Part shown: in pieces, positions 21,373 to 39,809 of the stretch
How positions within the stretch are numbered: position 1 is the stretch's first letter
How the letters are laid out: every line of letters begins with the position of its first letter
Assembly: GCA_965223905.1 (NCBI GenBank)
Contig: CBDCXV010000010.1
Span: forward strand, 1,312,001 to 1,376,000
DNA: 64,000 nt
Direction of reading: 5' to 3'
Source: Candidatus Latescibacterota bacterium
GTDB lineage: Bacteria > Latescibacterota > UBA2968 > UBA8231
Position numbers and translations under genes: made by a program
Notes under the pieces: generated by a model
What the model was told of the DNA's origin: nothing
The model's input: the letters and a program-made list of their open reading frames with translations, nothing else
The model's database searches: none

Positions 21373-21526
21373 TTGCGGCAGTGCCTGTCAGGGGACTTGA
21401 CCGCCGTAAGCAATACCACCGTGTGGGAGTATCTGATTACGACCGTTCAGCCAAATACGTACCATCGTTTCGGATAAGTAACCCTCGGGCGGTTGTTATC
21501 CGAACAATTGGTTCGGGTACAATCAG

Positions 21527-21865
21527 TTAGGCGAAGGCATAAGAAAAAATGGATGGATTTGGTGGAGTATAGATCATGAGAGGGTGTTGGAGAGTTCGGG
21601 CTGGCGCTTTGCAGTGGAGGAGCATTTACGGAGATGGTCGCCTCGTCGCACGTGATTTCCCAACCCCGTCCGGCGCGCTAATACCGCTTGGGCGTTGCGT
21701 TTTACCTGGTCAAGAAATGATGAAATCAATGGGCAGTTGGGGAGATCGGGACCTGCGGATTGGGAGACCGACGAAAGATGGAGGGCTGAGGAGGGGCGCC
21801 GGACGGCCTCTCCACCACCCAAGCCCGAGAGTTTCTCCCATCGTGGTCGATCCGAGCAGGCCCTC
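21527..21865. other. ORF-less cassette body, copy A (candidate structured ncRNA)
   Basis: Bounded by GTTAGGCGA/TCGCCTAAC; homologous to 22918-23255 with 1-bp indels; internal inverted repeats. Confidence 0.75.
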
Positions 21866-21949
21866 GCCTAACACCTGTTCCCCCGGCTTCGGGCCCTGCG
21901 GGCCCTCCGCCAAACCGCTGTGCGGTTCGGGGGCACTGAGACGTTAGCC
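21866..21949 (+). repeat. attC-like site 1
   Basis: GCCTAAC...CGGGGGCACTGAGAC-GTTAGCC. Confidence 0.9.
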
Positions 21950-21953
21950 GCAA

Positions 21954-22721
21954 GTGGCATTACAACTGACCCATTCCGTGACCAACATGCTGAGCGAGAT
22001 CTACCGGACGAGTTTCGAGTGGGCCAAGCTGGGTGGCCATATCATCGAACACCGTTTTGGAGTCACCGTTTACAACTTGGACCACCCTGAGTACAACGAG
22101 AATAACTGCCTTTGGTATTTCGATCCAGGATTGGCGGATGAGTTTACTTTCCAGGTGGTTGTGGCGGAATTCGAAAGCCTGGGTGTGAGCTGCTCTCAAT
22201 GGGTTCCTTCCCCTTCCGCCAATCTGGATTTATGTGACAATTACTTCCGTGTTCATGAGATGGCTGATTCACCAGGAGAAGGCTTATTGCTCGATCTTGA
22301 TAGGGAATACCACGCTGACGCGAGAATCTGCGCGAAACGCAGCAACAAGCAATCCCTTGCGCAGGTCTATTCCTTGAGTGGCCAGAGATCAACTAGCACT
22401 GTCACGAGGAACAAAGCCTTATCTCTTTTGGGGATAGCGAACTACGAATCGTATGTTTGCTACTGGGATGGGGAACTGGCGGGCAGAGCTGGACTGCTGA
22501 GGGTTCCGGGAAAAGTCGCTCGATTGAAGAGCATTTTCGTCGGCGCCACATTTCGCCGTCAGGGAGTTGCTAGCAGCCTGATAAGGGTGATCGCCACCAA
22601 AGCGAGGGAACTGGGGTACCGCTATCTAGCGTCCGAAGTAGACCCTTCCAACGAGGCGTCGTCGGAATGTCATCGAAAGGTAGGGTTCAAAACCGCAGGG
22701 CTTGTTCACGCGTACAAATGA
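21954..22721 (+). CDS. GNAT family N-acetyltransferase (cassette)
   Basis: IFVGATFRRQGVAS, NEAS..RKVGF; start may be ATG 21987. Confidence 0.8.
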   Translation: MALQLTHSVTNMLSEIYRTSFEWAKLGGHIIEHRFGVTVYNLDHPEYNENNCLWYFDPGLADEFTFQVVVAEFESLGVSCSQWVPSPSANLDLCDNYFRVHEMADSPGEGLLLDLDREYHADARICAKRSNKQSLAQVYSLSGQRSTSTVTRNKALSLLGIANYESYVCYWDGELAGRAGLLRVPGKVARLKSIFVGATFRRQGVASSLIRVIATKARELGYRYLASEVDPSNEASSECHRKVGFKTAGLVHAYK

Positions 22722-22839
22722 CTCGGAGATGGACATCACGCCTATTCCTCGGAGTGAAAGATCAAAACCAGTTGTGTACGTTGTGCCGGCTTTTTAAGGC
22801 CAACCGCGGTTTCTTCGCGTCGAAGGCCAAGCCACCAGC

Positions 22840-22923
22840 GGCTAACACGCCGGGCTGCGGCTCCGGCCATCCGGCCTTCGCCCAACCCGCTTCGCGGGTT
22901 CGCAGCCCACGAAAGCGTTAAGC
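22840..22923 (+). repeat. attC-like site 2
   Basis: GGCTAAC..GGGCTGCG/CGCAGCCC..GTTAAGC. Confidence 0.9.
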
Positions 22924-23255
22924 GAAGGCCAAGGAAAATTTGATTGATTTGGTGGAGTATAGGTCATGATAGGCTGTTGCGGAGTTCGGGGTGGTCCCTC
23001 GCGGTGAGGAAGCATTTGCAGAGATGGGCGGCTCGTCGCACGTGATTCCCCACCCCGTCCGGCGCGCTAATACCGCTTGGGCGTTGCGTTTTACCTGGTC
23101 AGGAAAAGACGAGATCAATGGGCAGTTGGAGAGGTCGGGACCTGCGGATTGGGAGACCGACGAAAGATGGAGGGCTGAGCAAGGGCGCCGGACGGCCTCT
23201 CCACCGCCCAAGCCCGAGAGTTTTCTCCCATCGTGGTCGGGCAGAGCAGGCCCTC
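22918..23255. other. ORF-less cassette body, copy B (candidate structured ncRNA)
   Basis: Bounded by GTTAAGCGA/TCGCTTAAC; diverged copy of 21527-21865. Confidence 0.75.
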
Positions 23256-23340
23256 GCTTAACACCTGTGTCCCCGGCTCCGGGCCCTGCGGGCCCCTCGC
23301 GCAACCGCTTCGCGGTTCGGGGGCACGGAAGACGATATAT
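23256..23340 (+). repeat. attC-like site 3 (ends in non-canonical GATATAT)
   Basis: GCTTAAC...CGGGGGCACGGAAGAC-GATATAT. Confidence 0.88.
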
Positions 23341-23432
23341 GACATGGGTTGTCACAGTACCAGTGAAATTCGACAGAGGCAAAGCTGGCACGGTTGAAAT
23401 CATGAGCCTGCAGGCGCTGGAGAAAAACTGAC

Positions 23433-23924
23433 GTGGATCGCGTAGCCGTATTCGCAGATGTACAGAATGTTTACTACACAGTTAAGCAGCAACATAATTG
23501 CCATTTCGACTATGGTTCTTTCCTCAGGGAGGCGACAGCCGGCCGGAAACTGGTGAAGGCAGTAGCCTATGCTATTGACAAAGGCGACAGAAAGCAGGCC
23601 CAATTTCAGAAAATTCTGAAACGGCTCGGTTTTGAGGTAAAGCTCGCGCCTTATATTCAGAGAGCTGACGGCTCAGCCAAAGGGGACTGGGACGTGGGCA
23701 TTACGGTCGATATGTTGGAGTACGCAGATCGCGTGGATGTCGCTGTCCTGGCTTCAGGTGACGGAGACTACGCGCCTGCAATTGACAAGCTAATCAAGGA
23801 ATCCAAGGTATCCGTCGAGGTGTACGGTGTCCCAGGACTAACTGCTAGTCGTCTAATCGAATCGGCGACGCGATTTGTGCCAATTCAAGGAGATCTGTTG
23901 CTGCCTATTCCCACCACGTGGTGA
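23433..23924 (+). CDS. NYN domain (LabA/DUF88) protein (cassette)
   Basis: VFADVQNVY, KGDWDVGITVD, SGDGDY. Confidence 0.9.
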   Translation: MDRVAVFADVQNVYYTVKQQHNCHFDYGSFLREATAGRKLVKAVAYAIDKGDRKQAQFQKILKRLGFEVKLAPYIQRADGSAKGDWDVGITVDMLEYADRVDVAVLASGDGDYAPAIDKLIKESKVSVEVYGVPGLTASRLIESATRFVPIQGDLLLPIPTTW

Positions 23925-24021
23925 CGTGGAAGCGACACTGTTGCAAAGCCATGCACGCTAACGCACTCTCGCGTCGCTACCTCTCTGCGTTGATCAGCCT
24001 TGGAGCAATCATACCCACGTC

Positions 24022-24111
24022 ATATATCACAGCAATTCACGCTGCCGCCATTCGGCGCTTGGCCTTCGGCAAGTCGCTTTCGCGACTTCGTGAATTGTGA
24101 GAACGTTACAT
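24022..24111 (+). repeat. attC-like site 4 (starts with non-canonical ATATATC)
   Basis: ATATATC..CAATTCACG/CGTGAATTG..GTTACAT. Confidence 0.88.
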
Positions 24112-24154
24112 GAAATGCTTGATAGATATCTGCGATAGACGCTGACAACACGAG

Positions 24155-24784
24155 ATGGACGTAAATCTTCTCTCATCGCGACTTGCCTCGGAATTGGGCT
24201 CGAATAGACTCCTCGTAGCCGCACTCGATGGTCCCGGCGGAGCTGGAAAGTCAACCATCGCCAGGAAACTAAGCGAGAGGTGTAATCTCATCTCAATCGT
24301 TCACGGGGATGACTTCTATGCTCCAATGGAGGAGCATGCGAGAATGGCTCTAACGCCTGAAAATGGTTACATGAGGTATTTTGATTGGGCGAGAATACGG
24401 AGTGAGCTTCTTGAACCCTTATCGCGTGGAGATCGAGCTCGCTACAAGCGCTATGATTGGGGGAGCAACCAGCTGGCGGAGTGGGTTGATCAACCGGCTG
24501 AGGGCATCATCCTGATCGATGGGGTCTATTCATTTCGGCCCGAATTGAGGAAATTCTATGGCTACTCCATTTTCGTCGACACTCCGAAAGCCGAATGTCT
24601 GGATAGGCTGGTCAAGCGAGGTGAAAACACAGACGAATGGATTCGGAGATGGAGGGCAGCGGAAGATTACTATCTGACGCATATAGACACTGCCAGTGCT
24701 GTTTCCGTCGTTGTTTCAGGCATAGGAAGCGCTGGAGCATCGGATCCGATATCGCGACCGAGGATATCCGCGCACTTCATGTAA
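24155..24784 (+). CDS. Uridine kinase-like P-loop protein (cassette)
   Basis: DGPGGAGKST, HGDDFY, YDW; stop codon lies inside ATGTAAC. Confidence 0.85.
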   Translation: MDVNLLSSRLASELGSNRLLVAALDGPGGAGKSTIARKLSERCNLISIVHGDDFYAPMEEHARMALTPENGYMRYFDWARIRSELLEPLSRGDRARYKRYDWGSNQLAEWVDQPAEGIILIDGVYSFRPELRKFYGYSIFVDTPKAECLDRLVKRGENTDEWIRRWRAAEDYYLTHIDTASAVSVVVSGIGSAGASDPISRPRISAHFM

Positions 24785-24859
24785 CACCGTGCCCCCGGCT
24801 TCGGGGCAAAGCCCCTTAGCCCAACCGCTACGCGGTTCGGGAGCACTGAAACGTTAGCC
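24779..24859 (+). repeat. attC-like site 5
   Basis: ATGTAAC-ACCGTGCCCCCG...CGGGAGCACTGAAAC-GTTAGCC. Confidence 0.9.
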
Positions 24860-24929
24860 GAAATGTCGGTTTGAGGCTTACATCATTGCCTCGAGTTGTG
24901 ATTCAACAGAATCAGAAGGAGATGGTCCC

Positions 24930-26642
24930 TTGATAGGTGATTTTGATGTCGATCCGATCACAGGGCGCCTCGTTCTGTGGTGCCGGAGCATTTCCGGAGA
25001 AACCTGGTTGAAAATTACGGAGCCCTCAGGTGAGATCATTGGGGAAGTACCGCCTGAATTTCTTCCCCATCATCCGCGTTGGGCTCCAGATGGACTTCGT
25101 CTTACGTTTTCTGGGAACGATGGCCGCATCGGTGTCTATGAGCTATCTCAGAATGACATAAGGGTCGTCTACGAAGATCAATCCATGCAAGCGGGGTTCA
25201 GCCAGTGGTCGCCAAACGGCACAAGCCTCGTGTTTTCTGCCTACGAAAAGCACAGTACCGAGCAATTGAATAAACGGCCACCTGACATTTTTCACCTCAC
25301 ATTGGATAGCGGCAAACTTGATAGATTGACCGCATCGAAGGACAGTGTGGACAGGTTTCCAAATTGGTCCCCATCCGGTGACCTGATTGCATTTCATCGG
25401 CAAAACCTGGAGGAGCTTAACAAGCCTAAGAAAGTGCATCTATTTGATCTTCAACGTCAAAGAATATCCTTGCTCCTGCCCGAGGCAAATGGTAACCGAT
25501 TTGGTCGATTCCCCTGGTCACGTGACGAAAGCTGGTTTGCACTTCACGTGTCCGACGAGAAGGAAGGGACCGTTCACGTTGTAGATCTTACGGGCCGAGA
25601 TTCCGGGTGGATCTATGAAGATGGGCCTGTGAAAGAAGGTGCATTTTCAAACTCGACGAACAGGCTTCTCTGCGTCAGACCCGATGAGCTTGTTTGGGTG
25701 CAGTTTCCCGTAGGCCGCGTAGATTCACGCATCAGATTGGATTCCGGGGTTAGCGTGGCGAAGAACCTGACTTGGTATCAAATCGCCTTCAGAGCCGACA
25801 GCGATACCGTCTTTTTTCTTGGAACAGACCATAAGGTTTACCGCTGGAAAGAATCTGAAGGATGCACTGTCGTAGCTGAGCATACCGAACCCGTACCGAG
25901 TTTTAGGCTTGAGGAATTTACGGTTCCTGCTTCGGATGGTTTAGCTCTTCCAGCACAGCGGTTGGTTCCGCCGTCTCCACGAGAGCTCGCTGTTCTGTAT
26001 GTGCATGGTGGGCCTGGAGGCAGCCTCGATAGAAATGACTCATGGGCTTTAGGGCTGCTTCGCCAGGGATTCGAGATTGTGCGCGTGGCTTATAGGGGCT
26101 CTACCGGCTTCGGCGAGGACCTCGATCGAGCGAACACCGGGGTCGCCGGGGTCGCAGACGTTCAGGATGTATTAGACTGTGGAATCTACTGGCAGCAACA
26201 CTTTAGTACAGGCAGGAGAATCGCTCTGTTCGGTAATAGCTATGGCGGGTTTCTAAGTCTCCTTGCCCTGGCAGATGCATCTTCACCATTCGTAGGTGGG
26301 ATCTCCACGTGCACTTGCACAAGTCTTCGAATCATGCGCCTCCATCATGATAGATTCCTTCCAAGTAGTCCAACGGAACGCGAGAAAGCATTAGTTGAGC
26401 GATCCGTATTGACACATGCTACCCATATAAAGAGGCCAATCCTGCTGGTTCATGGCGCGCTTGATACCGTCGCGACCACAAGCGAAATGCAGCACGTCGA
26501 GAAACTCATTAATGACTCTGGCGGCAACTGTACGCTAATCGTCTTTGGCGACGACACACACAGTTTGGCAAAGCACCGCGAAGAAATATACGAAAAGGCT
26601 ATCCAATTCTATGAAAAGTGTTCAACGCCTGGACAGGATTGA
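24930..26642 (+). CDS. S9 prolyl oligopeptidase-family peptidase with TolB-like beta-propeller (cassette)
   Basis: WSPxG repeats, HGGPG, GNSYGG, HGALD, DDTH. Confidence 0.88.
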   Translation: MIGDFDVDPITGRLVLWCRSISGETWLKITEPSGEIIGEVPPEFLPHHPRWAPDGLRLTFSGNDGRIGVYELSQNDIRVVYEDQSMQAGFSQWSPNGTSLVFSAYEKHSTEQLNKRPPDIFHLTLDSGKLDRLTASKDSVDRFPNWSPSGDLIAFHRQNLEELNKPKKVHLFDLQRQRISLLLPEANGNRFGRFPWSRDESWFALHVSDEKEGTVHVVDLTGRDSGWIYEDGPVKEGAFSNSTNRLLCVRPDELVWVQFPVGRVDSRIRLDSGVSVAKNLTWYQIAFRADSDTVFFLGTDHKVYRWKESEGCTVVAEHTEPVPSFRLEEFTVPASDGLALPAQRLVPPSPRELAVLYVHGGPGGSLDRNDSWALGLLRQGFEIVRVAYRGSTGFGEDLDRANTGVAGVADVQDVLDCGIYWQQHFSTGRRIALFGNSYGGFLSLLALADASSPFVGGISTCTCTSLRIMRLHHDRFLPSSPTEREKALVERSVLTHATHIKRPILLVHGALDTVATTSEMQHVEKLINDSGGNCTLIVFGDDTHSLAKHREEIYEKAIQFYEKCSTPGQD

Positions 26643-26662
26643 GCTTTACAGGTCCACACAGC

Positions 26663-26746
26663 AGCTAACACATGGGTCACGGCTTCGGGCCATACGGCCC
26701 TTCGCCCAACTCACTTCGTGAGTTCGTGACCCATCAAACGTTATAC
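26663..26746 (+). repeat. attC-like site 6
   Basis: AGCTAAC..ATGGGTCACG/CGTGACCCAT..GTTATAC. Confidence 0.9.
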
Positions 26747-26757
26747 GCCCCAACAAG

Positions 26758-27507
26758 ATGCTGGAGGAACAGGTGGCCGGAAGTAGAGATGATCTCAGAG
26801 AGGCGGTAGAGCGCGGCGACCTCTCCACTGTCAAACGGCTGTTACATACGGAGCCAGGTCTTCTCCACGAGTCCATCCCTCCATGCGATGATCGCAAACA
26901 ACGAGGCCAGATTCTCAGATACCGACCGATGACGCTCGCCGCCGTGGAGTGTCAGACAGAAATTCTCTCTTTTCTGATTGCCGAGGGGGGCGATGTGATG
27001 GAGTACAGCAATTTTCCACTCTGTCGAGCATCACTCTACGACCGTTGTATTCCAACTCTGGAGTTACTGGTTCAGCATGGCGCAGAGGTAAATCGAGTCG
27101 GTAATGACTACGGTCCGCCGTTGATATTCGCGTGCGAAGGAATGGCCCTCGATTGCATCGCATGGTTGCTGGACAACGGCGCGGCAATCACAGGGACTGG
27201 TCCGAGTTTATCTGAAACCGTGTCTTGGAATGCCCTCAAACATGCGGGCTTCTTCAACCGGAAGTGTTCGGGCATGCTTGATTTGCTCCTCGAGCATGGC
27301 GCTGACGTCAACAGTTCAGTTGTTGATGAGGTTGGCGGAGATCCTGAGACTACGGTACTGCACAATGTCGTGGAAAGCGGGGATATTGCTGGCGTGGAGC
27401 TCCTGCTTACCCATGGGGCTGACCAAGATGCCAAAAATGGCAAGGGACAGCGCCCGGTCGAGGTGGCTCGGGAACGCAAAGTCAGAGAACTACTAGAGAA
27501 CATCTGA
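26758..27507 (+). CDS. Ankyrin-repeat protein (cassette)
   Basis: LLVQHGAEVN, LLLEHGADVN, LLLTHGAD..KNGKGQRP. Confidence 0.88.
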   Translation: MLEEQVAGSRDDLREAVERGDLSTVKRLLHTEPGLLHESIPPCDDRKQRGQILRYRPMTLAAVECQTEILSFLIAEGGDVMEYSNFPLCRASLYDRCIPTLELLVQHGAEVNRVGNDYGPPLIFACEGMALDCIAWLLDNGAAITGTGPSLSETVSWNALKHAGFFNRKCSGMLDLLLEHGADVNSSVVDEVGGDPETTVLHNVVESGDIAGVELLLTHGADQDAKNGKGQRPVEVARERKVRELLENI

Positions 27508-27516
27508 GGTTGGAGC

Positions 27517-27607
27517 GCATAACCGCACGTTTGGCGATGCGGCGCTTAGCGCGCCTCGGCCTTCGGCAACCCGCTAAGCGGGTTCGCAAACCGGCAACCC
27601 GTTAGCG
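27517..27607 (+). repeat. attC-like site 7
   Basis: GCATAAC...GGCCTTCGGCAACCCGCTAAGCGGGTTCGCAAAC...GTTAGCG. Confidence 0.85.
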
Positions 27608-27662
27608 GCAATGGAGTTCAGGCCTGGCATGTTCCTCTGGCCAGTCATCAGGAGGCACCAAG

Positions 27663-28148
27663 ATGGAGAATATAATCCTTTCGTTGCAGGGTTTCTCTGT
27701 GTTCCTGCAAATCGCTTTCCTAGTCACTTTGATAGCAATCGCACAGACTCTTCGACGCTCAATTGGAATTTGGAGCCCCTCTTGGATTGTTATCTTTTTC
27801 TCTCTGAAATATTTGGGGGAGTATGCTAATCCCTTCCTGATGAAACTGCTGACTGAGGAATGGACGGCGTTAACAGTCCCAAACGCGCCGGTCACCTTAG
27901 GGCAGTTGTTTGTATTTCTCAGTTCCGCTCACCTGATATTCATACTGCTGGGTGCTTTCGGCCTCCTCGCCCTGGTCTTGTCGGACCTATCCCATTCTTT
28001 GTGGGGCGCAGACGACATACACCCCTCACGTTGGTTTCAGTGTTTCGAGTTGGTCGGCCGTCATCGACTCGGATTCGGGTTGGCTACGGTGCTGTTGGCT
28101 GTAGCGCACCCTGCCCTTCTGGTGGGCCTTCTGTTGAGTAACAATTGA
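27663..28148 (+). CDS. Hypothetical membrane protein (cassette)
   Basis: 161 aa with about 4 hydrophobic segments; AGGAGG RBS; fills the cassette. Confidence 0.75.
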   Translation: MENIILSLQGFSVFLQIAFLVTLIAIAQTLRRSIGIWSPSWIVIFFSLKYLGEYANPFLMKLLTEEWTALTVPNAPVTLGQLFVFLSSAHLIFILLGAFGLLALVLSDLSHSLWGADDIHPSRWFQCFELVGRHRLGFGLATVLLAVAHPALLVGLLLSNN

Positions 28149-28165
28149 GACTGGCAGACCACAGC

Positions 28166-28247
28166 CGATAACACCGTGCCCCTGGCTCCGGCGCCTGCGC
28201 GCCTACGCGCAACCGCTTCGCGGTTCGGGGGCACTGAGACGTTAGAA
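28166..28247 (+). repeat. attC-like site 8
   Basis: CGATAAC-ACCGTGCCCC...GGGGCACTGAGAC-GTTAGAA. Confidence 0.9.
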
Positions 28248-28344
28248 GAAATGGAAAAAAGAATCAGCGCTTAAGTAAGAAATCGCCTGAATAAAGGTAG
28301 AGGTACGATATATTCGCCGTTCAGTTTTTAGGCAGGAGTTTTTA

Positions 28345-29304
28345 ATGAATAGCAAGGCTAGTATCGTAGATGAGTTTTTGCTTAAAGGGGTCATCGGTAT
28401 GAGCAGGGCGATCGGTAAGAATCGTATGTCTGGCCATCCAGGCGCTGCGATGCTTGCTGCATATTTCTTTTGTGTTGAGAATGCCCTGTCAGACGAGGTT
28501 CAGGCCGAGGTCTATAATCTCGTGAGACGCATGGTCAACTCAGAATCAATGTGGTTCAGCAGAGATGGAGAATCTTCAACCAATGAGATCTTCTTTTCTA
28601 CCAAACCAGATCAGAGACCAAACGCGGATCTAATCCCGTCTGTTGCCACTGCACTAGAACCCAGTATCACCGAATGTCGGGATTCAGGACACAATACTAT
28701 CTTCGCGTCGTTAGTACTGAAGGCACTGCACACCGCGCCACATTATGCATTTCCTGCGATTATTGAAGGTATCATAAACTTGCTCAAAGCTTTTGAGGGA
28801 CGTGGGCCGGGATGGGCACGTGTACCAGGTAATGAGAAATTAGCAGATCCCCGTGAGTTTTCGGTACCTCAAGAACTGGATGATCCTTCCTATGAGAGCC
28901 ATATCGACATGATCGAAGCAGTATCCCGCTATGTCGTACCAGATAACTTCGCCAAAAAAGGCGTTGGTGGGCCGATCCATGTCATAGATCATGCCGTAGC
29001 TCTGTTAGATCTGCACGCGTTGGGGTATTCTTCGTTGGCGAATAGAGGACTGGCAGCTCATCAGCAACATATGAAGTTGTGGCTGGGCCTCCCTAAATTT
29101 CCGCAAGCTGAAAACAGCTACTCCGTGAAATCGAAGCACGATCCTCGCGCATTGGACTACTGGCGTGAGAAGATAACCATAAAAGATGGTGGCGGTGATG
29201 AACACCGACTGAAGATTCTCTATGGCGCGCACCGTTTTGCCGAGTGCATTACAGACGTAAACAAACGTCGAAGTTTTCTTGAAAGTGCGGCGCACCTGTT
29301 TTGA
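28345..29304 (+). CDS. Hypothetical protein with several His motifs (cassette)
   Basis: 319 aa, AGGAG RBS; SGHPGAA, SGHNTIF, IHVIDHA. Confidence 0.75.
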   Translation: MNSKASIVDEFLLKGVIGMSRAIGKNRMSGHPGAAMLAAYFFCVENALSDEVQAEVYNLVRRMVNSESMWFSRDGESSTNEIFFSTKPDQRPNADLIPSVATALEPSITECRDSGHNTIFASLVLKALHTAPHYAFPAIIEGIINLLKAFEGRGPGWARVPGNEKLADPREFSVPQELDDPSYESHIDMIEAVSRYVVPDNFAKKGVGGPIHVIDHAVALLDLHALGYSSLANRGLAAHQQHMKLWLGLPKFPQAENSYSVKSKHDPRALDYWREKITIKDGGGDEHRLKILYGAHRFAECITDVNKRRSFLESAAHLF

Positions 29305-29370
29305 AAATGCGCCTAACGGCGAGCGTTGTTGGCTCTCTTTTTCTTTTACAGAAACTAAATATGCCACTTC

Positions 29371-29457
29371 TTCTAACACATCCATTTACGCTACGGCGCT
29401 ACGCGCCTTGGCCTTCGGCAACCCGCTGCGCGGGGTCGCAAACCGGGGACGTTAGAG
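29371..29457 (+). repeat. attC-like site 9
   Basis: TTCTAAC...GGCGCTACGCGCCTTGGCCTTCGGCAACCC...GTTAGAG. Confidence 0.88.
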
Positions 29458-29991
29458 GCCATGCGGCCAGACAAGAGGACAATCGCAAATGAGGCTTGGG
29501 AGAATCTGACGATGCTGGAAGAGGGTGAATCCGTCCAAGGTTGTGTCAATCCCGTTGTGCGGATTGGAGATACCGTGCGCAGGCCTATCCATAGCTGGAC
29601 TCCAGCCGTCCATTCCTTGCTGCACTACTTGGAGGCGGTTGGCTTTTCAGGATCTCCCCGTGTCCTCGGATTCGACGAACTGGGAAGAGAGGTGCTTTCG
29701 TTCATCCCAGGGGAAGTTGCTCTGCGACCATGGCCGGAGGTGATGGGTGAGGAGAAGGGCCTCGCTGAGGTCGCCCGTTTTCTCTCCAGATATCACAATG
29801 CCGTGAAAGACTTTGAGCCACCAGAGAATGCTGAATGGTATGTTCCCATGTGACGTGGCGACCAGGAATGACCATCCGACACGGGGATCTTGGACCCTGG
29901 AATACTATCTGGGAAGGGCGAACCTTAAACTGGAGTTGACCCGATTTCGTGGACACTTCATTTCTTGGAGAAAGAAAGGAGATGTCCAACC

Positions 29992-30306
29992 ATGCCGAAA
30001 TCACATAGCCCGTATCCGCCGGAATTCCGGCAACAGATGGTTGAGCTCGTACGGGCGGGTCGTAGCCCGGAGGCGTTGGCCAAGGAATTCGAGCCGTCCG
30101 GGCAGACGATCCGCAACTGGGTGATCCAGGCCGAACGCGATGAGGGGGTGCGTCGCGACGGGCCGAGCCGCCCCGAACAGGAGGAGCTGCGGCGCCTTCG
30201 CCGTGAGAACAAGCAACTGCGTATCGAACGGGGGATCCTGGCAAAAGCCACGGCCTGGTTCGCTCGCGAGGCCGACTCGGGGTCCGGCCCGTCTACGAGT
30301 TCATGA
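29992..30306 (+). CDS. IS3 transposase OrfA
   Basis: YPPEFRQQMVELV HTH; EELRRLRRENKQL zipper. Confidence 0.9.
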   Translation: MPKSHSPYPPEFRQQMVELVRAGRSPEALAKEFEPSGQTIRNWVIQAERDEGVRRDGPSRPEQEELRRLRRENKQLRIERGILAKATAWFAREADSGSGPSTSS

Positions 30307-31187
30307 GAGCGCACCAGGCCGACTTTCCGGTGTTCACGATGTGCCGCGTGCTGAAGGTGTCCCCCAGCGGCTACTACGCCTGGTTGAAGCGCCCGCCGTC
30401 GGGTCGCACTCGGGCCGATGCGGTGCTCAAGGCGCGCGTCGAGCAGATCCACCAACGCTCCCGAGGCACTTACGGGGCGCCGAGGATCCGGGCCGAACTG
30501 GCCGAGGAGGGGCGCGGCGTCAGTCGCAAGCGCATCGCCCGATTGATGCTCGAGCTCGGGGTGCGTGGGGTATGCGGGCGGCGCCGGATCTCCACGACCC
30601 GCCGCAGCCGGCAGGGCCGGGTCGCCTCCGACCTGGTCAACCGGGTGTTTTCGGCCTCGGGCCCGAATCTGCTGTGGGTTGCCGACATCACCTACCTGCC
30701 CACCGCTTCGGGTTTTTTGTATCTGAGTGTGGTGGTCGACGCCTGGAGCCGCCGGGTGGTGGGCTGGGCTATGGCGAGCCATCTGCGTACGCAGCTGGTG
30801 CTCGACGCCCTTGACATGGCCCTGTACCGGCGTCGCCCCCACTCGGTAATCCACCACTCCGATCACGGCAGTCAGTATACGGCCCTGGCCTTCGGGCAAC
30901 GCTGTCGCCAGGCCGGGGTGCGCCCGTCGATGGGATCGGTCGGTGACTGCTACGACAATGCCCTGTGCGAAAGCTTTTTCGCCACGCTGGAAAGGGAGTT
31001 GTTGGATCGTCATCGGTTTGCTACCCATGCCGAGGCCCGGCTAGCTGTTTTCGAGTACCTGGAAGGCGGGTACAATCGCCAGCGGCGGCATTCCGCCCTG
31101 GGACAACGGTCTCCCGTCAACTACGAGAGATATCACCAATCAGAGAGTGTAGATCCAAACGCAAAACTGTCCGTGAAATCGGGGTAA
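30303..31187 (+). CDS. IS3 transposase OrfB (DDE)
   Basis: WVADITY, HHSDHGSQY, DNALCESFF; ATGA overlap with orfA. Confidence 0.93.
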   Translation: MRAHQADFPVFTMCRVLKVSPSGYYAWLKRPPSGRTRADAVLKARVEQIHQRSRGTYGAPRIRAELAEEGRGVSRKRIARLMLELGVRGVCGRRRISTTRRSRQGRVASDLVNRVFSASGPNLLWVADITYLPTASGFLYLSVVVDAWSRRVVGWAMASHLRTQLVLDALDMALYRRRPHSVIHHSDHGSQYTALAFGQRCRQAGVRPSMGSVGDCYDNALCESFFATLERELLDRHRFATHAEARLAVFEYLEGGYNRQRRHSALGQRSPVNYERYHQSESVDPNAKLSVKSG

Positions 31188-31562
31188 CCTCAAACGGGGT
31201 AATCGACTGGGACTTTGCTGAACCAGGTGATGCTCTCTGCGATGTTAGTCAGTTTGCTTGGTATGCGGTGCCTCTCCGAGGAGAAGACCACTGGAGAAAG
31301 GCTGGATTTTCTGATAAGCCTGATCTCAGGGCCAGACTAACCGTACTTTCTGACACCTATGGTACGGACTCCAAAGCAATCTTGGACACCCTATGCAATC
31401 TGCAATTGGAAGAGTATCGCAGGACCGAGACTCTGGGCAGGCAGGGACTCCTCCCCTGGTCCATCTTCTACGAACGTGGGGATCTTGCGGAACTCTCAAA
31501 AGAAAACACGTGGCTGAGAGAGAATTACGATTCGCTTGCCGTATAGAAGCGGTCCGCACGTC

Positions 31563-31658
31563 TTCTAACACGTCCACTTGCGCTGCGGCGCATATGCGCC
31601 TTGGCCTTCGGCAACCCCTCGACAAGCTCGGGGTTCGCAAGTGGCGAAAACGTTAGGT
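31563..31658 (+). repeat. attC-like site 10
   Basis: TTCTAAC..CCACTTGCG/CGCAAGTGG..GTTAGGT. Confidence 0.9.
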
Positions 31659-31689
31659 GCCATCTGAAAGATTCCACTGTGGAGGACTC

Positions 31690-32667
31690 GTGAAAGGATT
31701 CGAATTGTCAGAGAGGTTCTTCCGGGAGATTGGGCTTCCCACCATTGAGCAACGATTGCCCGGGTGTGTCCCGAGACTGGCAGTGGGCGTTAGTGGAGGC
31801 TCGCAAGCGCACAAGAACGACGATGCAGTGTCTCGCGATCACGGTTGGGGGCCGAGATTCACGGTGTGGTTTGCCAAAGACGATTTCGATGATCACAGTG
31901 AGCGTCTACAGGAAGTGCTGGACACGCTGCCCAATGAGTATGAGGGATTTCGATGGGAGGATCCACGGGCCAGGACCTGTGGTGTAATCGAAATCGGTAG
32001 CTATATAGAATCTGCAGTTGGATTCTCAGAACCACCCGAGTCGCCCATGGACTGGTTGCGAATACCCGAGTCGTACCTATTCGAGTTGACTCCGAGCAGG
32101 CTCTATCACGATGGGCCTGGCATTGTCAGTGCTCGCTTCCGAGCGTTCTCCACATACCCTGATGATGTCTGGAAGCAGCGAATGGGGGCTTGCCTTTCCT
32201 GGCTCTGGGAGTGGGGACGAAAGCATCTCTTCAGGGCGGAAACTCGAGGAGACCACGTGAGTGCGTCTTGCTATTGGGCAAGATTTGCTGAGTACGCAAT
32301 GAAGGTTGGTTTTCTGATGAGTCATCGTCATGCACCCTACCACAAATGGTTGTGGAGAGAGTTCAGGAAGTTGGGTGCCATTGCCGACCAAGTTTCTCCT
32401 TTGCTTGAGGAGGGGTTCGAGAAGGTGGAAGGCAGACGAGAACTCGTTGACCGCATAGAGATGATCTATATGGAGATGCTTCAGCAGCTTGGCTTTTCAC
32501 CAGCGGTCCAAGCAGCCACTAGAAGATTGGCCTATCCAGACAATGAACTGCTTCGATATGCCCAGAGTGTTCGTAACGCCATTGAGACTCCAGAAATCAA
32601 GAAACTGCACTTGAGAGAAGAGCTTGTCTATCCAGCAACTAAGGCCGCGTGGACATGGCTACGATAG
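31690..32667 (+). CDS. DUF4037 domain-containing nucleotidyltransferase-like protein (cassette)
   Basis: GFELSERFF, DAVSRDHGWGP, YPDDV, APYHKW; GTG after GGAGG. Confidence 0.8.
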   Translation: MKGFELSERFFREIGLPTIEQRLPGCVPRLAVGVSGGSQAHKNDDAVSRDHGWGPRFTVWFAKDDFDDHSERLQEVLDTLPNEYEGFRWEDPRARTCGVIEIGSYIESAVGFSEPPESPMDWLRIPESYLFELTPSRLYHDGPGIVSARFRAFSTYPDDVWKQRMGACLSWLWEWGRKHLFRAETRGDHVSASCYWARFAEYAMKVGFLMSHRHAPYHKWLWREFRKLGAIADQVSPLLEEGFEKVEGRRELVDRIEMIYMEMLQQLGFSPAVQAATRRLAYPDNELLRYAQSVRNAIETPEIKKLHLREELVYPATKAAWTWLR

Positions 32668-32686
32668 GGACGATCTGGTAGACAGC

Positions 32687-32768
32687 ACCTAACACCGTGC
32701 CCCCGGCTTCGGGCCGTTCGGCCCTTCGCCCAACCGCTGCGCGGTTCGGGGGCACTGAGACGTTAAGA
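32687..32768 (+). repeat. attC-like site 11
   Basis: ACCTAAC-ACC-GTGCCCCCG/CGGGGGCAC-TGAGAC-GTTAAGA. Confidence 0.92.
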
Positions 32769-32802
32769 GAAATGTTTTAAGAGACGAGTAGGAGTTTCAG
32801 GT

Positions 32803-33513
32803 TTGAGACCAGTTCTTCTGTTTGACCTTGGCGACACCCTTGTGCAGTACTATCGCAGGGAAGAGTTTCCTCCTTTGCTGCGGGCAGGAATTCACGCAGC
32901 CAAAGAGGCACTGGAGCGTTCGGGACACGATTTGCCTTCGGATTCTGAGATCGAGCGCGGTGTCGCGACTGAGAACTACGAAGCCAAAAACAGTCGCGTT
33001 CGCCCACTCCACAAGAGGCTTGGTCGTATCTTTGCGGTCGCACCTTGCGTTTCGGAGGAAGAGTGGCTGCCGATCTGTCGTGCCTTCCTCACGCCAATCA
33101 TTTCTATTGCCAAGATCTATGAAGACACTCTTCCGGCTCTAGATGCGCATCTGGCGGATGGCTGCCGCGTAGGAATCCTGTCGAACTGTCCTTGGGGTTC
33201 ACCGAGCGAGCCCTGGTTTGAAGAACTGCGGCGACATGGCCTTTCGACGCGATGCGAGGTGGCTATCTTTTGTTCGGATGTAGGGTGGCGGAAGCCCGCC
33301 CAACCTATGTTTCGCCGGGCATTGGATCATTTTGGATGCAAACCAGAGGAATGCCTGTTTGTCGGAGATAATGCAAGGTGGGACATTATGGGTGCGAGAC
33401 GAGCGAATATGATTTCCGTGCTCATCGACCGAATCGGTCACGTGGATGTGAGTTCGGGACTTGTTATCCGATCTTTGCTTGATCTAAAGCCCGTCCTCGA
33501 ACGATTGGATTGA
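32803..33513 (+). CDS. HAD family hydrolase (cassette)
   Basis: FDLGDTL, LSN, RKP, FVGD..WDIMGA. Confidence 0.88.
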   Translation: MRPVLLFDLGDTLVQYYRREEFPPLLRAGIHAAKEALERSGHDLPSDSEIERGVATENYEAKNSRVRPLHKRLGRIFAVAPCVSEEEWLPICRAFLTPIISIAKIYEDTLPALDAHLADGCRVGILSNCPWGSPSEPWFEELRRHGLSTRCEVAIFCSDVGWRKPAQPMFRRALDHFGCKPEECLFVGDNARWDIMGARRANMISVLIDRIGHVDVSSGLVIRSLLDLKPVLERLD

Positions 33514-33545
33514 ACGCACTTCAACGATTGGATTGAACGCACTTC
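33500..33545 (+). repeat. Perfect 23-bp tandem duplication
   Basis: AACGATTGGATTGAACGCACTTC x2. Confidence 0.95.
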
Positions 33546-33628
33546 TCTTAACACGACCGGGCCCGGCTACGGGCCATACGGCCCTTCGCCCGACCGCTTC
33601 GCGGTTCGAGCACGGCGAAAGGTTATAT
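33546..33628 (+). repeat. attC-like site 12
   Basis: TCTTAAC...GGGCCATACGGCCC..ACCGCTTCGCGGT...GTTATAT. Confidence 0.88.
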
Positions 33629-33653
33629 GACATGAGTAACAGGTGAGCGTGAG

Positions 33654-34730
33654 ATGAGATCGTCGATTCTTCCAATCTTACTCGTGTTTGCTCATATCAC
33701 GGCCAGCGAAGGAGGTGAGCCAATGTTTAGCGTAACCGTTGATCCGCGGATAGAGCTGCTGTCCGTTGTGGGAGTATTGGCCGACCACCAGGGCATGACG
33801 AACTACGACATCCAGTATAGGCAAGAAATCCTAAATCGCTTTTCCAATCACAGGAATCACAACGCCGTCACGTTTCTACGCCGTGTCATGGATAGGGCAC
33901 TTGCATCCGATGCATACGCGACCGTTATGATCCATTTGTCGCAGCCTCCCGCATTAAAGTTTGAGAGTCCGATCAACGACGACGCGATGGAGGACTATGT
34001 CACCCGAGCGTTTGGTGGCGACATTAATATCATTGCATTTGTCGAGACGCTCCGTGACTTCGTCAAGGATTCAGATTTCATCGAGTTTTACAGCTCCCAA
34101 TCACGTTTCTATCAATCTTTGAGATCAGATGCTTTGGACAAGCTTGGTAGCACAGATTATATGAATACGCTTGAACAATACGTTGGCGATAAGCAGGAAA
34201 ACTATCACATCATTCTCGGGCCCCTGCTCCATCACGGCGGTTTTGGACCCCGGATCGTAGGCGACAAGGGCGTGACTGATCTCTTCAGTATCATCGGCCC
34301 GGTGGGCGAGGATGAGGGGGTTCCCGACTTTGGAGACCGAGCTAGACTTCAAGACGTTCTTTGGCACGAGTTTGCACATTCATTTGTCGATCCCATAACC
34401 GCCGATCACCTGATGAGCGTTAATGAATATTCGTCCCTGTATATACCTATTGCAGAACAAATGGCGAGCGCTGGCGGCTACATGAACTGGCAAACCTGCG
34501 TCAACGAACACATAATCAGAGCCATTACATGTCGATTGTTCCACTCTGAGATGGGGACGGAGGCTGGAGAGCAGGCCCTTGCGGCCGAGAGGGAGCGAGG
34601 CTTTCGTTACATCGACGCCATCCATTCAAGGTTGTTGGAGTATGAGGGTAATAGGTCGACGTATAGCACGCTCAGGAGTTTCTATCCTGAGATCGTCGCT
34701 GCGTTTGCACAGATTGCAAGCGAGAATTGA
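33654..34730 (+). CDS. DUF4932-like protein with HExxH motif (cassette)
   Basis: VDPRIELLSVV, HEFAHSFV, NEHIIRA. Confidence 0.8.
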   Translation: MRSSILPILLVFAHITASEGGEPMFSVTVDPRIELLSVVGVLADHQGMTNYDIQYRQEILNRFSNHRNHNAVTFLRRVMDRALASDAYATVMIHLSQPPALKFESPINDDAMEDYVTRAFGGDINIIAFVETLRDFVKDSDFIEFYSSQSRFYQSLRSDALDKLGSTDYMNTLEQYVGDKQENYHIILGPLLHHGGFGPRIVGDKGVTDLFSIIGPVGEDEGVPDFGDRARLQDVLWHEFAHSFVDPITADHLMSVNEYSSLYIPIAEQMASAGGYMNWQTCVNEHIIRAITCRLFHSEMGTEAGEQALAAERERGFRYIDAIHSRLLEYEGNRSTYSTLRSFYPEIVAAFAQIASEN

Positions 34731-34760
34731 AAACGGAAGTTCCGCAAGAGGACCCACGTC

Positions 34761-34845
34761 ATATAACACGTCCGTGCCCGGCTTCGGCGCTGAGGCGCCT
34801 TCCCGCAACCGCATTCGCGGTTCGGGCACGGCGAAAACGATATCT
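34761..34845 (+). repeat. attC-like site 13 (ends in non-canonical GATATCT)
   Basis: ATATAAC..CCGTGCCCG/CGGGCACGG..GATATCT. Confidence 0.88.
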
Positions 34846-35168
34846 GAAATAGGAAAAGAAAAACAGAGCCTATTCAGTATATCTCCAGCCATTGGGAGAA
34901 TACTGCGTTTTCGCAGTACAATCACTAGTTATAGAGCCAGGAGAAGAAACCAGCGATTGTGACCAATGAAGCTGACAGGCGGCAGGACGAATAGCACCGG
35001 GAGCGGAGGAGATGCTCGCCTTGAGGTCGGATCAACTGGCAGGATCGGAAAAGCCAAACATTGGAATCAACAAGAACTGCTGATGAGCCGGCGGCAGTAA
35101 CTTCCGCATTCGCGTCACACCACAAGAGGGTCGCCTTTGCGCCTTCAGAATCGAAAAGGAGCCCACCC

Positions 35169-35876
35169 ATGGAACGGATTTTCTCAAATCTCTACCGCAT
35201 CGGAGGCGAGCCCCACGAGCGCGGGCAGTCGCATTCCTACCTCCTCGTGAGAAAGACGGGCAATCTGTTCATCTGCCACCAGAGCGTCCCGACGTCGGCG
35301 GACGTGAAGGAGATCAAGCAGCTCGGCGGGGTTGCGAGTCAATTTGTCTGCCACCATTGGGACGCGAACCGGAAGGGCGGACACGACGGGCTCTTCAAGA
35401 CGTTCGGCTGCGCGCTTCACCTTCACAGGGCGGATCGCGCCGCCGCGCGAGGCAAGACGAAGTTCACGCTCGACACGTTCGACGACGCGGGGCTGACGCT
35501 GGACAAGGATTTCGAGGCCATCTACATGCCGACGTGCACGCGCGGCCATACGGTCTTCCGGTGGCGCAACCGTGGGAAGTACCACCTGTTCTCAAGTCAC
35601 GCTATCTACCTTCTCGAGGACGGATGGCGTCTCAGCTTGAACCGCCACGAAGGCAAGCTTTGGGGGCCAGGTTGTAGGATTTGGCAGGCGCAAGCCATAC
35701 GACCGGCGCTCGCCAAGTTGAAGGGCCTCCAGGTGGATCACATATTTCCGGGTTACACGCAGGTGGGTGACGACACCTTCTACCGGTTAGACGACCGCAA
35801 GAGGCGGGCGCTGACCCGCGCCCTGAAGGCGGAGCTCATGACCGCCGATCATCTGTTGGATTCTCGGCAGCTATGA
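35169..35876 (+). CDS. Metallo-beta-lactamase-fold-like protein (cassette)
   Basis: HSYLLVRKTGNL, CHHWD, LHRAD, TRGH, IFPG. Confidence 0.65.
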   Translation: MERIFSNLYRIGGEPHERGQSHSYLLVRKTGNLFICHQSVPTSADVKEIKQLGGVASQFVCHHWDANRKGGHDGLFKTFGCALHLHRADRAAARGKTKFTLDTFDDAGLTLDKDFEAIYMPTCTRGHTVFRWRNRGKYHLFSSHAIYLLEDGWRLSLNRHEGKLWGPGCRIWQAQAIRPALAKLKGLQVDHIFPGYTQVGDDTFYRLDDRKRRALTRALKAELMTADHLLDSRQL

Positions 35877-35945
35877 GGCAGGCTTAGAGAAAGAGAACCT
35901 CACAGACAACAGATTACCAGACGACCTCTCGTTGAAGCTTAGGAA

Positions 35946-36035
35946 GTATATCACAGAAATTCCCACTGCGCGCCATTCGGCGCTTGGCCTTCGGCAACCT
36001 ACTCCGTGGGTTCGCAAACCGGCATTACGTTACCT
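35946..36035 (+). repeat. attC-like site 14 (starts GTATATC; arms poorly paired)
   Basis: Left part resembles site 4; right arm CGCAAACCGG resembles sites 7 and 9; ends GTTACCT. Confidence 0.8.
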
Positions 36036-36064
36036 GCCATGGCAGTGCCCATAAGGAGAGACAC

Positions 36065-37198
36065 ATGAAGTCCCTGACATCCATCATCGCCGCCTCAATC
36101 CTCCTCCTCTCGCCCATCCTCGCCCACCACGAACGAGCAGAACCCCCGGAGGGAGCCGTGGCCCGAACCGTCCTGCCAGACGTCAAGATGCCGATCATGA
36201 ACGAGCACTCCCGTTCCACCCTCGTCTGCGCGATGTACGCACTGCTGCCGGCTCTCGGGCAACAGGGCTGGTCGATCCCTCGACTGGAAGCGCTGACGGG
36301 ATACGCCTTCTACTTCCAGATGCGGGAGGGGGGCGAGTCGGTCTTCGACGACGATCTCGATTGGGGCCTGGCCATGCACGTCCTCGACATCTTTGGTCAG
36401 GCGAAAGTCTATGATGCGGACAAGAACTCGGACGTTGATCTCCCTGCGCTCAAGGCCGAAGCGCGAGACGCAGTCGTCGCCAGCCTGGAGAACGGACTCC
36501 CCAGCCTCGTTTGGGCGCCACGAAGCCTGGAGCAGAGGGGCAAGGTCCATTTCGCTTGCTGGGGCCTCATCGTCGGCTACAACGCGGCAGACGGAACCTA
36601 CATGATCCGCCAACCGGCCGAGAAGCTCGACTACCCGGTCCGCTTTGACGCCATCGGGTTCGCCGATCCGAGCGATTGGTTCCGCGTCGACACCTTCAAG
36701 CCGAAAGAACTTGACGACAACGCTCTGCACCTCACCTCACTCCGCAATGCCGTCGCCTTCGCGAACGGCACTCGCTACGACAACCCCCAGGTCGTCGAGG
36801 CCGCCCTCGTGCATCCCCCGAAAAACCCCTATGGATTCGCCGCCTACGAGCTCTGGCAGGAAGCGTTCGAATCTGACGTAAATCTGAACGCCACGTTCTT
36901 CCACACAGAAACCCTGAAACCGCGTAGAGAGGCCGCGGCCGCCTACCTGCGGGAGCTCACCTATGCCTATCCGGCCGCCGCCAATCCGCTGGAAGCAGCA
37001 GCTGTTCACTATGATCGAGAGGTCGAATCCATCACCGCAATCTCCGACCTGTGCGTTGCCGCCACCAAGCACGAGCCCAAGGCCTTCACCCCCGACGAGC
37101 GCGCCGAAATCCGCCCCCTCATCGCCCAAGCGTTGAAGGCCGACCGGGCCGCCGTGGCGCAGATCGAAGCCGCGCTCAAGATTCTGGAGACGCCGTGA
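36065..37198 (+). CDS. Hypothetical secreted protein (cassette)
   Basis: AAGGAG RBS, signal peptide, WGLIVGY motif. Confidence 0.75.
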   Translation: MKSLTSIIAASILLLSPILAHHERAEPPEGAVARTVLPDVKMPIMNEHSRSTLVCAMYALLPALGQQGWSIPRLEALTGYAFYFQMREGGESVFDDDLDWGLAMHVLDIFGQAKVYDADKNSDVDLPALKAEARDAVVASLENGLPSLVWAPRSLEQRGKVHFACWGLIVGYNAADGTYMIRQPAEKLDYPVRFDAIGFADPSDWFRVDTFKPKELDDNALHLTSLRNAVAFANGTRYDNPQVVEAALVHPPKNPYGFAAYELWQEAFESDVNLNATFFHTETLKPRREAAAAYLRELTYAYPAAANPLEAAAVHYDREVESITAISDLCVAATKHEPKAFTPDERAEIRPLIAQALKADRAAVAQIEAALKILETP

Positions 37199-37283
37199 GG
37201 CAGGCTCAGCGTGCTCTTGACCGGGGCCCATCGTGAGGGGGGGAGTACGCTGTTTCTTTGCCGATTCTCAAACTGCCACAGGC

Positions 37284-37367
37284 AGGTAACACGTCCGTGC
37301 CCGGCTTCGGGCTTACGCCCTTCGCGCAACCGCTTTCGCGGTTCGGGGGACGGCGAAGACGTTAAGT
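37284..37367 (+). repeat. attC-like site 15
   Basis: AGGTAAC-ACGTCCGTGCCCG...ACGGCGAAGAC-GTTAAGT. Confidence 0.9.
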
Positions 37368-37408
37368 GGCATGCGCACGATAAGTCCGACCTGGTTTAGA
37401 GGTCATGG

Positions 37409-37978: not shown

Positions 37979-38048
37979 ATCGATTCTGTGCGCGTCAGCA
38001 CCTTCGGGCGCGAACTGCACGTGGCGCCCTGAGTTCGAGAAAACACGC

Positions 38049-38858: not shown

Positions 38859-38882
38859 TCCGCCACCCGATCCAACCATCCC

Positions 38883-39604: not shown

Positions 39605-39724
39605 TCGATTCAGTCTGCCCGCTTTTATTGGTATTTTTCTACAAACACATGCCGCCGGACGCGAGCTGTCGTTCCGTTCTTCCCGAGTCTATCCGAGCTA
39701 TCCTGGAAATAGTCGGAAAGAGGT

Positions 39725-39809
39725 GGGTTCGCACTGCGGCGCTGATCGCGCCTGAGCCTGCGGCAACCCCTTGCCAAGCTCGGGGTTCGCAAACCGAAGA
39801 ACGTTTTGG
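39725..39809 (+). repeat. Degenerate attC-like site (left core lost)
   Basis: CTGCGGCGC..GCGCC..GGCAACCCCTTGCCAAGCTCGGGGTTCGCAAACC..GTTTTGG, similar to site 10. Confidence 0.78.

Follow-up and report, generated by a model that had tools for sequence, protein, structure and literature searches.

The gene-cassette array in a 64,000-nucleotide stretch of Candidatus Latescibacterota DNA (the window: G000:C10:1312001-1376000, G000 being the genome that carries it) raises the question of whether its cassette ends hold a recognition determinant beyond the standard integron recombination site, attC. In the integron model, attC is recognised by its structure, with extrahelical bases read by the I2 domain of the integrase, and the R box is the 7-bp core. 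A preliminary description of the array, made from the DNA letters alone, had noticed complementarity running well past this core together with a conserved A/C mismatch at position 11, and had proposed an extra strand-selecting or binding determinant that forms fully only in the excised circle. We found that the extended arm pairing is real, that it is specific to the two ends of the same cassette and carries a conserved mispair at position 11, and that it holds beyond the window. The interpretation proposed for it is partly supported.

Pairing between the two ends of a cassette

With the G of the GTT core taken as position 1, the first 20 bases of each of the 15 complete window cassettes were set against the 20 bases that close with the cassette's own R'' core, read as their reverse complement. 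Pairing reaches positions 13-16 in 13 of the 15 cassettes. Over the nine positions 8-16, own ends match at 5.93 positions on average, against 3.35 for the 225 non-own pairings and 3.47 for array neighbours, and the own-end sum was reached by none of 100000 permutations. This bears out the reported complementarity past the core; of the two examples quoted for it, the first, a pair of 16-mers, is found at 23334 and 24013-24028, the second at 28241 and 29364-29377. Of 75 cells at the non-conserved positions 9, 10, 14, 15 and 16, 44 are matched, the shuffled mean being 22.5. This covariation shows that a cassette's own two ends have been selected to pair, and they are adjacent only in the excised circle.

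At position 11, a start A faces a G of the reverse-complemented end in 10/15 window cassettes, three being matched and two showing a transversion. Read on the top strand this mispair is A.C; the bottom strand has a T.G wobble in its place. Its sequence context is as first reported: ATG occupies positions 11-13 in 10 of 18 cassette starts (23334, 24105, 24853, 27601, 28241, 29451, 32762, 33622, 36029 and 37361), CAC lies at the mirror position in eight of these ten, and two covarying cases keep the mismatch (ATC/GAC at 31652/32693 and AGT/ACC at 21943/22846). Exceptions in the window are cassettes 1, 3 and 7, mispaired at position 10 (cassette 7 also at 6), and cassette 15, which has a one-base bulge. 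The units of the array and its surroundings are as follows.

17358-17440, + strand: isolated attC remnant upstream of the array (25.5 bits, E 0.00088)
21426-21526, + strand: attI-like site of about 100 nt (profile search, 94.7 bits), ending at the G before the first cassette
21526-21942, + strand: cassette 1, without a long open reading frame (ORF), paralogue of cassette 3; arms 21526-21539/21859-21872, mispair at 10
21943-22916, + strand: cassette 2, GNAT acetyltransferase; 16-bp arms with mismatches at 10 and 11
22917-23333, + strand: cassette 3, likewise without a long ORF and paralogous to cassette 1; both arms differ at position 5 and the pair is kept
23334-24104, + strand: cassette 4, NYN domain; GAT/ATC core on both arms, 16-bp arms, A/C at 11
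24105-24852, + strand: cassette 5, AAA_18 kinase-like; 14-bp arms, A/C at 11
24853-26739, + strand: cassette 6, Peptidase_S9; weaker arms, A/C at 11
26740-27600, + strand: cassette 7, ankyrin repeats; 15-bp arms, transition mispairs at 6 and 10
27601-28240, + strand: cassette 8, ORF 27663-28148; arms to position 14, mismatches at 5, 10 and 11
28241-29450, + strand: cassette 9, ORF 28345-29304 without a Pfam family; 14-bp arms, A/C at 11
29451-31651, + strand: cassette 10, ORF from the position-11 ATG, interrupted by an insertion; 16-bp arms, A/C at 11
31652-32761, + strand: cassette 11, DUF4037; 14-bp arms, mispairs at 10 and 11
32762-33621, + strand: cassette 12, HAD hydrolase; 13-bp arms, A/C at 11
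33622-34838, + strand: cassette 13, DUF4932; 16-bp arms, A/C at 11 and 14
34839-36028, + strand: cassette 14, ORF 35061-35876, GAT/ATC core; arms essentially unpaired past position 5
36029-37360, + strand: cassette 15; 10 bp, a one-base bulge at 11, then 6 bp
37361-39802, + strand: unit 16; start arm with ATG at 11-13, no matching R'' end
39803-40461, + strand: cassette 17, DUF6933; closed by attC 40386-40468 (42.1 bits), with a bulge and A/C before a 4-bp helix

To enlarge the set, a profile of the window sites was run over the window, further arrays of G000 and, in ten related genomes, 20 stretches with arrays. Both ends of a cassette had to be mapped, at a distance of 120-6000 nt, for it to be retained, and three overlap duplicates were dropped; 209 hits thus gave 160 unique cassettes (15 of the window and 145 others) in 11 genomes. 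Because this profile runs only from R'' to R', the sites were selected without regard to any position from 8 onward. Among the 145 external cassettes, the start has A at position 11 in 133, the reverse-complemented end has G in 126, and the two coincide as the A/G mispair in 116, 16 cassettes being matched there. The bias therefore persists in the enlarged site set, and its asymmetry is specific to position 11, since other transition mispairs in the arm lack a strand bias (68 vs 60). The A/G state is present in 10/11 sampled genomes, and the pattern holds across five genera of the family (g1, g5, g8, g9 and g10).

The same set delimits the arm. Own-end matches exceed shuffled ones at positions 4-7 (481/580 vs 283) and 9-10 (182/290 vs 110), and most clearly at 12-16, where 472 of 725 cells match and shuffling gives 243 on average and never more than 291 (0/20000). 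The signal is weaker at 17-20 (196/580 vs 142) and gone at 21-24 (145 vs 140). Position 8 is a G-C pair in 139/145 cassettes, and position 10 is matched in just 72/145, with A against T in 42. When R'' is compared instead with the start of the next cassette, as the two stand in the array, position 8 pairs in 130/138 and the position-11 mispair occurs in 109/138; pairing in this context is restricted to the conserved positions 1-4 and 8 and the T.G at 11.

Ordinary integrons were examined for the same features. Eighty loci with canonical IntI genes were fetched from named genomes and parsed by self-similar attC: 20 of them had at least 4 repeated short segments, and five gave at least 3 cassettes (one array from Verrucomicrobiae, two from Thermoanaerobaculia, one from Calditrichia and one from Acidobacteriota; 44 unique cassettes). 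The own ends of these cassettes pair strongly up to positions 10-12 and no better than background from 13 on; at position 11, 26/44 are matched, 17/44 have a transversion and none has A/G. Seven class 1 cassettes from four plasmids (aadA1, aadB, blaVIM-1, blaVIM-11, aac(6')-Ib', dfrA12 and gcuF) pair to 11-12, with position 11 matched in 6/7 and again no A/G. The bias was thus neither lost in a larger set nor equally present in classical cassettes, the two computational outcomes that the preliminary description had set against its own claim. A covariance model, R1, built from 15 clear window attC sites gave no hits on the 80 canonical-IntI loci. Two other ways of finding canonical sites were tried and rejected: a generic attC finder (core motifs plus a constrained fold) recovered 18/54 known sites with equally many wrong-strand calls, and a chain finder, which combined own-end 7-mers with a hairpin, built long spurious chains on either strand. 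On one class 1 plasmid (L197, top strand, about 8260-8275), blaOXA-10 has no attC of its own: an attI1-type junction comes directly after it, together with the start of the aadA1 cassette.

The suggestion that the arm lies outside the standard attC description stands in part. Bouvier 2009 (PMC2727003) notes in its Introduction that most cassettes pair with themselves past the 7-nt boxes, "to a total of 9-11 consecutive complementary nt", and credits this to Rowe-Magnus 2003 and Sundstrom 1991; pairing of that length was therefore already known. The helix at 12-16 and the position-11 mispair are absent from the comparison cassettes. No earlier report of an R-arm wobble or mispair, or of large arrays beside recombinases without I2, was found in the open literature, which leaves subscription journals and supplements (possibly relevant are Cury 2016 figures S1 and S5 and Nivina 2020 table S1) outside this negative.

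A recombinase without I2 and an attI-like site

Which enzyme could act on these cassettes? G000 holds no TIGR02249 integron integrase above the family cut-off. Its best recombinase candidate, on contig C1, is frameshifted, and the array immediately next to it is another one of this attC family; further Xer-like genes are present at other places in G000. The recombinase of contig C1 also adjoins arrays in G010-G015, with 83-100% identity to the G015 query (for G015, the query's own gene). The protein has about 312 amino acids and the domains PF13495 and PF00589. Its best NCBIfam match is TIGR02249, with 230.7 bits (cut-off 265) in two stretches that skip model positions 180-234. In the best solved relative by sequence, IntI4 (2A3V), the 59 residues 179-237 of the chain face only 17 residues of the query (191-207). 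This gap falls at the IntI-specific (I2) domain, so the protein lacks the domain by which a complete integron is assigned. The XerC and XerD families fit no better, TIGR02224 scoring 178 bits (cut-off 335) and TIGR02225 180 bits (cut-off 330). In a quick tree, canonical IntI proteins form one clade (support 100), the I2-less recombinase is its sister (98) and a second short group branches below.

In 8/8 loci of the short recombinase, an attI-like site separates the recombinase gene from the first cassette, and attC of the same family is present in 7/8. The site is about 100 nt long and stops at the G of the first cassette. It has the position of an integron attI, between integrase gene and first cassette, and its attI function is putative. 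It also heads arrays without a recombinase gene, the window's array (21426-21526) among them. Neither G000 nor G010-G015 has a canonical IntI at the family cut-off. Such genes occur in 9/76 genomes of this bacterial family, and in eight canonical-IntI neighbourhoods from it there were 0 attC sites of the present family and 0 attI-like hits. The enzyme acting on these cassettes is thus most likely the IntI-like recombinase found beside these arrays and their attI-like site.

The second I2-less group, 51-55% identical to the first, has attC of the same family within 1.5 kb in 4/7 loci (L179, L180, L183 and L187, in G007, G019, G018 and G010:C1 respectively), located downstream and in the same orientation, with no match to the attI-like profile. 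G000 itself contains further small arrays of this attC family at C11:2026266-2028495 and C10:1667054-1667925; an attI-like site lies near each (L032 19133-19233 and L034 12809-12905), and no adjoining recombinase gene was noted.

The folded circle and the role of the mispair

Circle junctions were rebuilt in silico for 154 cassettes and folded with DNA parameters. The mean minimum free energy (MFE) and the mean number of pairs between the terminal arms were as follows.

Circle, bottom strand: mean MFE -30.8 kcal/mol; 11.9 pairs between terminal arms
Circle, top strand: mean MFE -27.9 kcal/mol; 10.1 pairs between terminal arms
Array, bottom strand: mean MFE -25.0 kcal/mol; 5.1 pairs between terminal arms

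The bottom strand has 11.9 arm pairs in the circle against 5.1 in the array, and the start of a cassette complements its own end and not that of its neighbour. The full arm is therefore expected only once both ends are brought together, as in the circle, and on this point the earlier proposal holds.

Its strand-selecting role is not supported if selection is understood as a matter of stability, that is, if the mispair made the bottom hairpin, with T.G, outdo the top hairpin, with A.C, so that the bottom strand alone recombined. The folds do run in that direction, the bottom strand being more stable than the top in 143 of the 154 junctions (by 2.9 kcal/mol on average) and the position-11 bases pairing in 84/122 bottom-strand folds against 0/122 top-strand folds. 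However, the bottom-minus-top gap is no larger in cassettes with the mispair (-3.02 kcal/mol, n=122) than in those with a Watson-Crick pair at 11 (-3.31, n=16), so the mispair is not the cause of the greater stability of the bottom strand. If thermodynamics were all, no single position or base identity would be fixed, and the other transition mispairs show no such bias; we consider this account quite unlikely. It is also unlikely, in our view, that the two ends pair across the gene within a single-stranded array, bringing flanking attC sites together or competing with their local R boxes, and in this way tune excision rather than integration. Covariation shows merely that both ends pair at some stage, and the local R arm of the array is weak, as seen above, with the own-end partner at a median of 870 nt. 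Nevertheless, closing a loop of about 900 nt carries an entropic cost, canonical integrons share the own-end rule for positions 4-11, which the circle explains, and no feature seen here requires the long-range form.

The frequency of ATG at positions 11-13, in 67/160 cassettes overall, may recall a start codon or translation signal to which the mirror CAC would be incidental, and in window cassette 10 this ATG is indeed the ORF start. As the preliminary description had remarked, it seldom is: the ORF from this ATG fills at least half of the cassette in 5/67, and most such ORFs stop within 25 codons. Conservation falls from A11 (133/145) to T12 (95/145) and G13 (68/145), and a signal for expression leaves both the conserved C on the other arm and the covariation unexplained, so that we find it hardly credible. 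The mispair could otherwise be a neutral relic, carried by one ancestral template and not yet repaired. All the sites belong to one sequence family found by a single profile, and related cassettes recur in several arrays, as a common template would predict. Turnover is high, though, as positions 9 and 12-16 are variable and compensated, and against this free variation only the 16 external cassettes noted above are matched at 11; the pattern is also kept in all five genera. A relic is thus improbable.

The reading that we favour, and consider somewhat probable, is that these cassettes have a longer R arm that only the excised, single-stranded circle completes and whose fixed marks (G-C at 8 and T.G at 11) co-evolved with the recombinase. 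It starts from observations: the two ends pair and covary, the mispair is conserved and does not occur in the canonical arrays that were compared, and the recombinase is associated with these arrays in the genomes. The R' half of the arm would lie at the cassette start, from T2 to about position 16, and the R'' half just before the attC core at the end. Excision by crossover at G|TT would make the two halves neighbours. In the folded bottom strand they would form a helix of about 16 bp, with positions 1-9 paired, 10 often mispaired, T.G at 11 and 12-16 paired. The proximal 10 bp would correspond to the canonical length, while the distal 5-bp helix (12-16) could act as a clamp that stabilises the integration hairpin, and G-C at 8 and T.G at 11 may serve as recognition marks for the recombinase monomer on the R arm. 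Binding of the arm by the recombinase, the strand that is used and any effect on recombination are inferred from this.

In canonical integrases the I2 domain reads the extrahelical bases, as seen in the solved IntI-attC complex. For a recombinase without I2, a different structural mark on the recombined strand would make sense, and the coincidence of the marks with such an enzyme suggests that they replace or supplement the reading of extrahelical bases. A further step, which is possible and about which we remain doubtful, would be that the arrays represent a separate integron-like lineage. Its recombinase, having never had I2 or having lost it, would read the long R arm with its T.G and G-C, and the lineage would be a living intermediate between Xer-type folded-DNA recombination and canonical integrons.

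Several facts weigh against the co-evolved arm. Cassette 14 (34839) is almost unpaired past position 5 and is a counter-example within the window. The A/G mispair is absent in about a fifth of the cassettes, including the 16/145 matched at 11 and all three of G011 (0/3), and both cassettes and genomes are related, so that the counts are not independent. The canonical sample is small and selected (5 of 80 loci), contains no Vibrio arrays, and includes one array, L162, of uncertain orientation (3/5 ORFs). The tree has only two outgroups, both Xer-like genes from G000, and the recombinase belongs to a small close clade, of about 15 clusters (identities of at least 76%), inside an Xer-like family that is very large. 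Six of the eight short loci have a broken or truncated recombinase, that of G000 included; it is intact only in G015 and G013. Many attC-bearing genomes, mostly of genus g12, have neither the short recombinase nor a canonical IntI at the thresholds used, and G006 and G007 carry a canonical IntI elsewhere in the genome, where it could act in trans.

The window array and its place among known systems

The array occupies the + strand of the window from 21526 to about 40468, as a row of promoterless, co-oriented cassettes with attC-type sites of 81-96 nt between them. It outruns the span first described, beginning behind the attI-like site and ending with the attC at 40386-40468. Model R1 finds 15 attC at 53-84 bits in the window and, more weakly, those at 40386-40468, 39714-39809 and 17358-17440; 17 attC hits lie on the strand of the array, and no recombinase ORF was found in 13.8-21.5 kb or downstream. 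The sites are imperfect palindromes between R'' (..AAC) and R' (GTT..) cores, as attC sites are, with ATC/GAT in 2 of 15 cores. Their consensus fold has unpaired columns between the R and L helices and a single unpaired column (82) on the '' side. The attI-like site holds the palindrome CCGAAC-N4-GTTCGG. The G+C content of the array is 51-61%, against 64-71% in the first 6 kb of the window and most of its last 16 kb. The cassettes carry a variety of genes (GNAT, NYN, AAA_18, S9 peptidase, ankyrin, DUF4037, HAD, DUF4932 and DUF6933), and several genes have no family.

At canonical sites the AAC triplet is regarded as essential. GAT/ATC stands in place of the near-universal GTT/AAC in the window at 23334, 24022-24028, 34839 and 35946-35952; a GAT core opens 8/160 cassettes, and both arms are changed in four.

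Cassettes 1 and 3 are paralogues of about 417 nt (21526-21942 and 22917-23333) with no long ORF and no Rfam match, and a further copy occurs elsewhere in one contig of sequencing run X4. They may encode an RNA or a regulatory element. The Rfam search gave no match in the window, nor any in 21400-23400 even at E up to 1. A 23-bp tandem duplication at about 33497-33542 takes in the distal R'' arm of cassette 12. The array is disturbed at 37361-39809, where unit 16 contains a PhyH gene and G+C-rich ABC-transporter-like fragments and closes in a degenerate attC (39714-39809, 24.9 bits) whose R''/L'' half has been replaced. Upstream, the attC remnant at 17358-17440, with a DUF433 gene after it, lies within a NUDIX-like ORF or behind it, 4 kb before the array, from which it is separated by a TonB-dependent receptor gene. 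Farther upstream there is an MmeI-family restriction-modification gene (956 amino acids, 13832-16702, - strand).

Traces of cassette movement are present. The NYN cassette (window 23334-24104) recurs in G000:C1 as the first one behind the attI-like site, whereas in the window it stands behind an attC; the copies are similar from the G/AT junction to the next core, so that the cassette has identical ends in two contexts. The boundary at G|TT with own-end core complementarity is that of integron cassettes. In run X4, which is from another organism, one contig has the G at 23334 followed by the start of a different cassette. The contigs of the sequencing runs are short and broken at the repeated attC, and most joints fall inside conserved attC, where they are unusable as cassette events; two observations from them are used here, the changed cassette after the G at 23334 and an empty site of the insertion element described next. 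The gene of cassette 10 is interrupted by a two-ORF insertion element at about 29927-31191, with HTH_Tnp_1 and rve domains; contigs of three runs join 29926 to 31192 and represent copies of the cassette without the element.

The sites resemble integron attC (59-base elements) in their RYYYAAC/GTTRRRY cores, imperfect palindrome, branched centre and crossover at G|TT. As in integrons, own-end complementarity is complete only in the circle, and the cassettes are promoterless, co-oriented and functionally diverse. They differ from integron attC, whose pairing covers 9-11 nt in Bouvier 2009 and reaches 10-12 in our comparison set, by a second helix at 12-16, the nearly invariant G-C at 8 and the T.G at 11. 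The recombinase is like IntI (TIGR02249; VchIntIA/IntI4, PDB 2A3V) in its PF13495 and PF00589 domains, its divergent orientation and its adjacent att site, but lacks about 40 residues at I2, stays below the family cut-off and falls outside the canonical clade.

With many attC and no integrase gene nearby, the window's array corresponds to a CALIN (cluster of attC sites lacking integron-integrases) as IntegronFinder defines the term (Cury 2016, PMC4889954), and software of that type would most likely file it as one. It departs from a CALIN in opening with a conserved attI-like site and in having a cognate-looking recombinase on contig C1 of the same genome. The same source reports recombinases without the IntI domain near fewer than three attC sites and judges them not to be IntI; the arrays described here, unlike those cases, have tens of attC sites. 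A likeness also exists to Xer acting on the folded single-stranded sites of CTX-phi (discussed in Escudero 2016, PMC4792948), where there is no I2-like domain and a long-arm hairpin mimics a duplex. The present system, which is not a phage attachment site, differs in its arrays of cassettes, in its attI-like site and in the unpaired bases of its attC-type sites.

In summary, set against the integron model outlined at the start, this attC family (about 160 sampled cassettes in 11 genomes) has an arm twice as long, a position-specific wobble and a neighbouring recombinase without I2, and its covariation is at the same time direct sequence evidence of selection on the excised circular intermediate. 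If the link with the recombinase is functional, the family represents a second way in which single-strand recombination recognises its strand and site, and software that requires an I2 profile would file whole platforms as integrase-less clusters. The family would then also bear on the origin of integron integrases from Xer-like ancestors.

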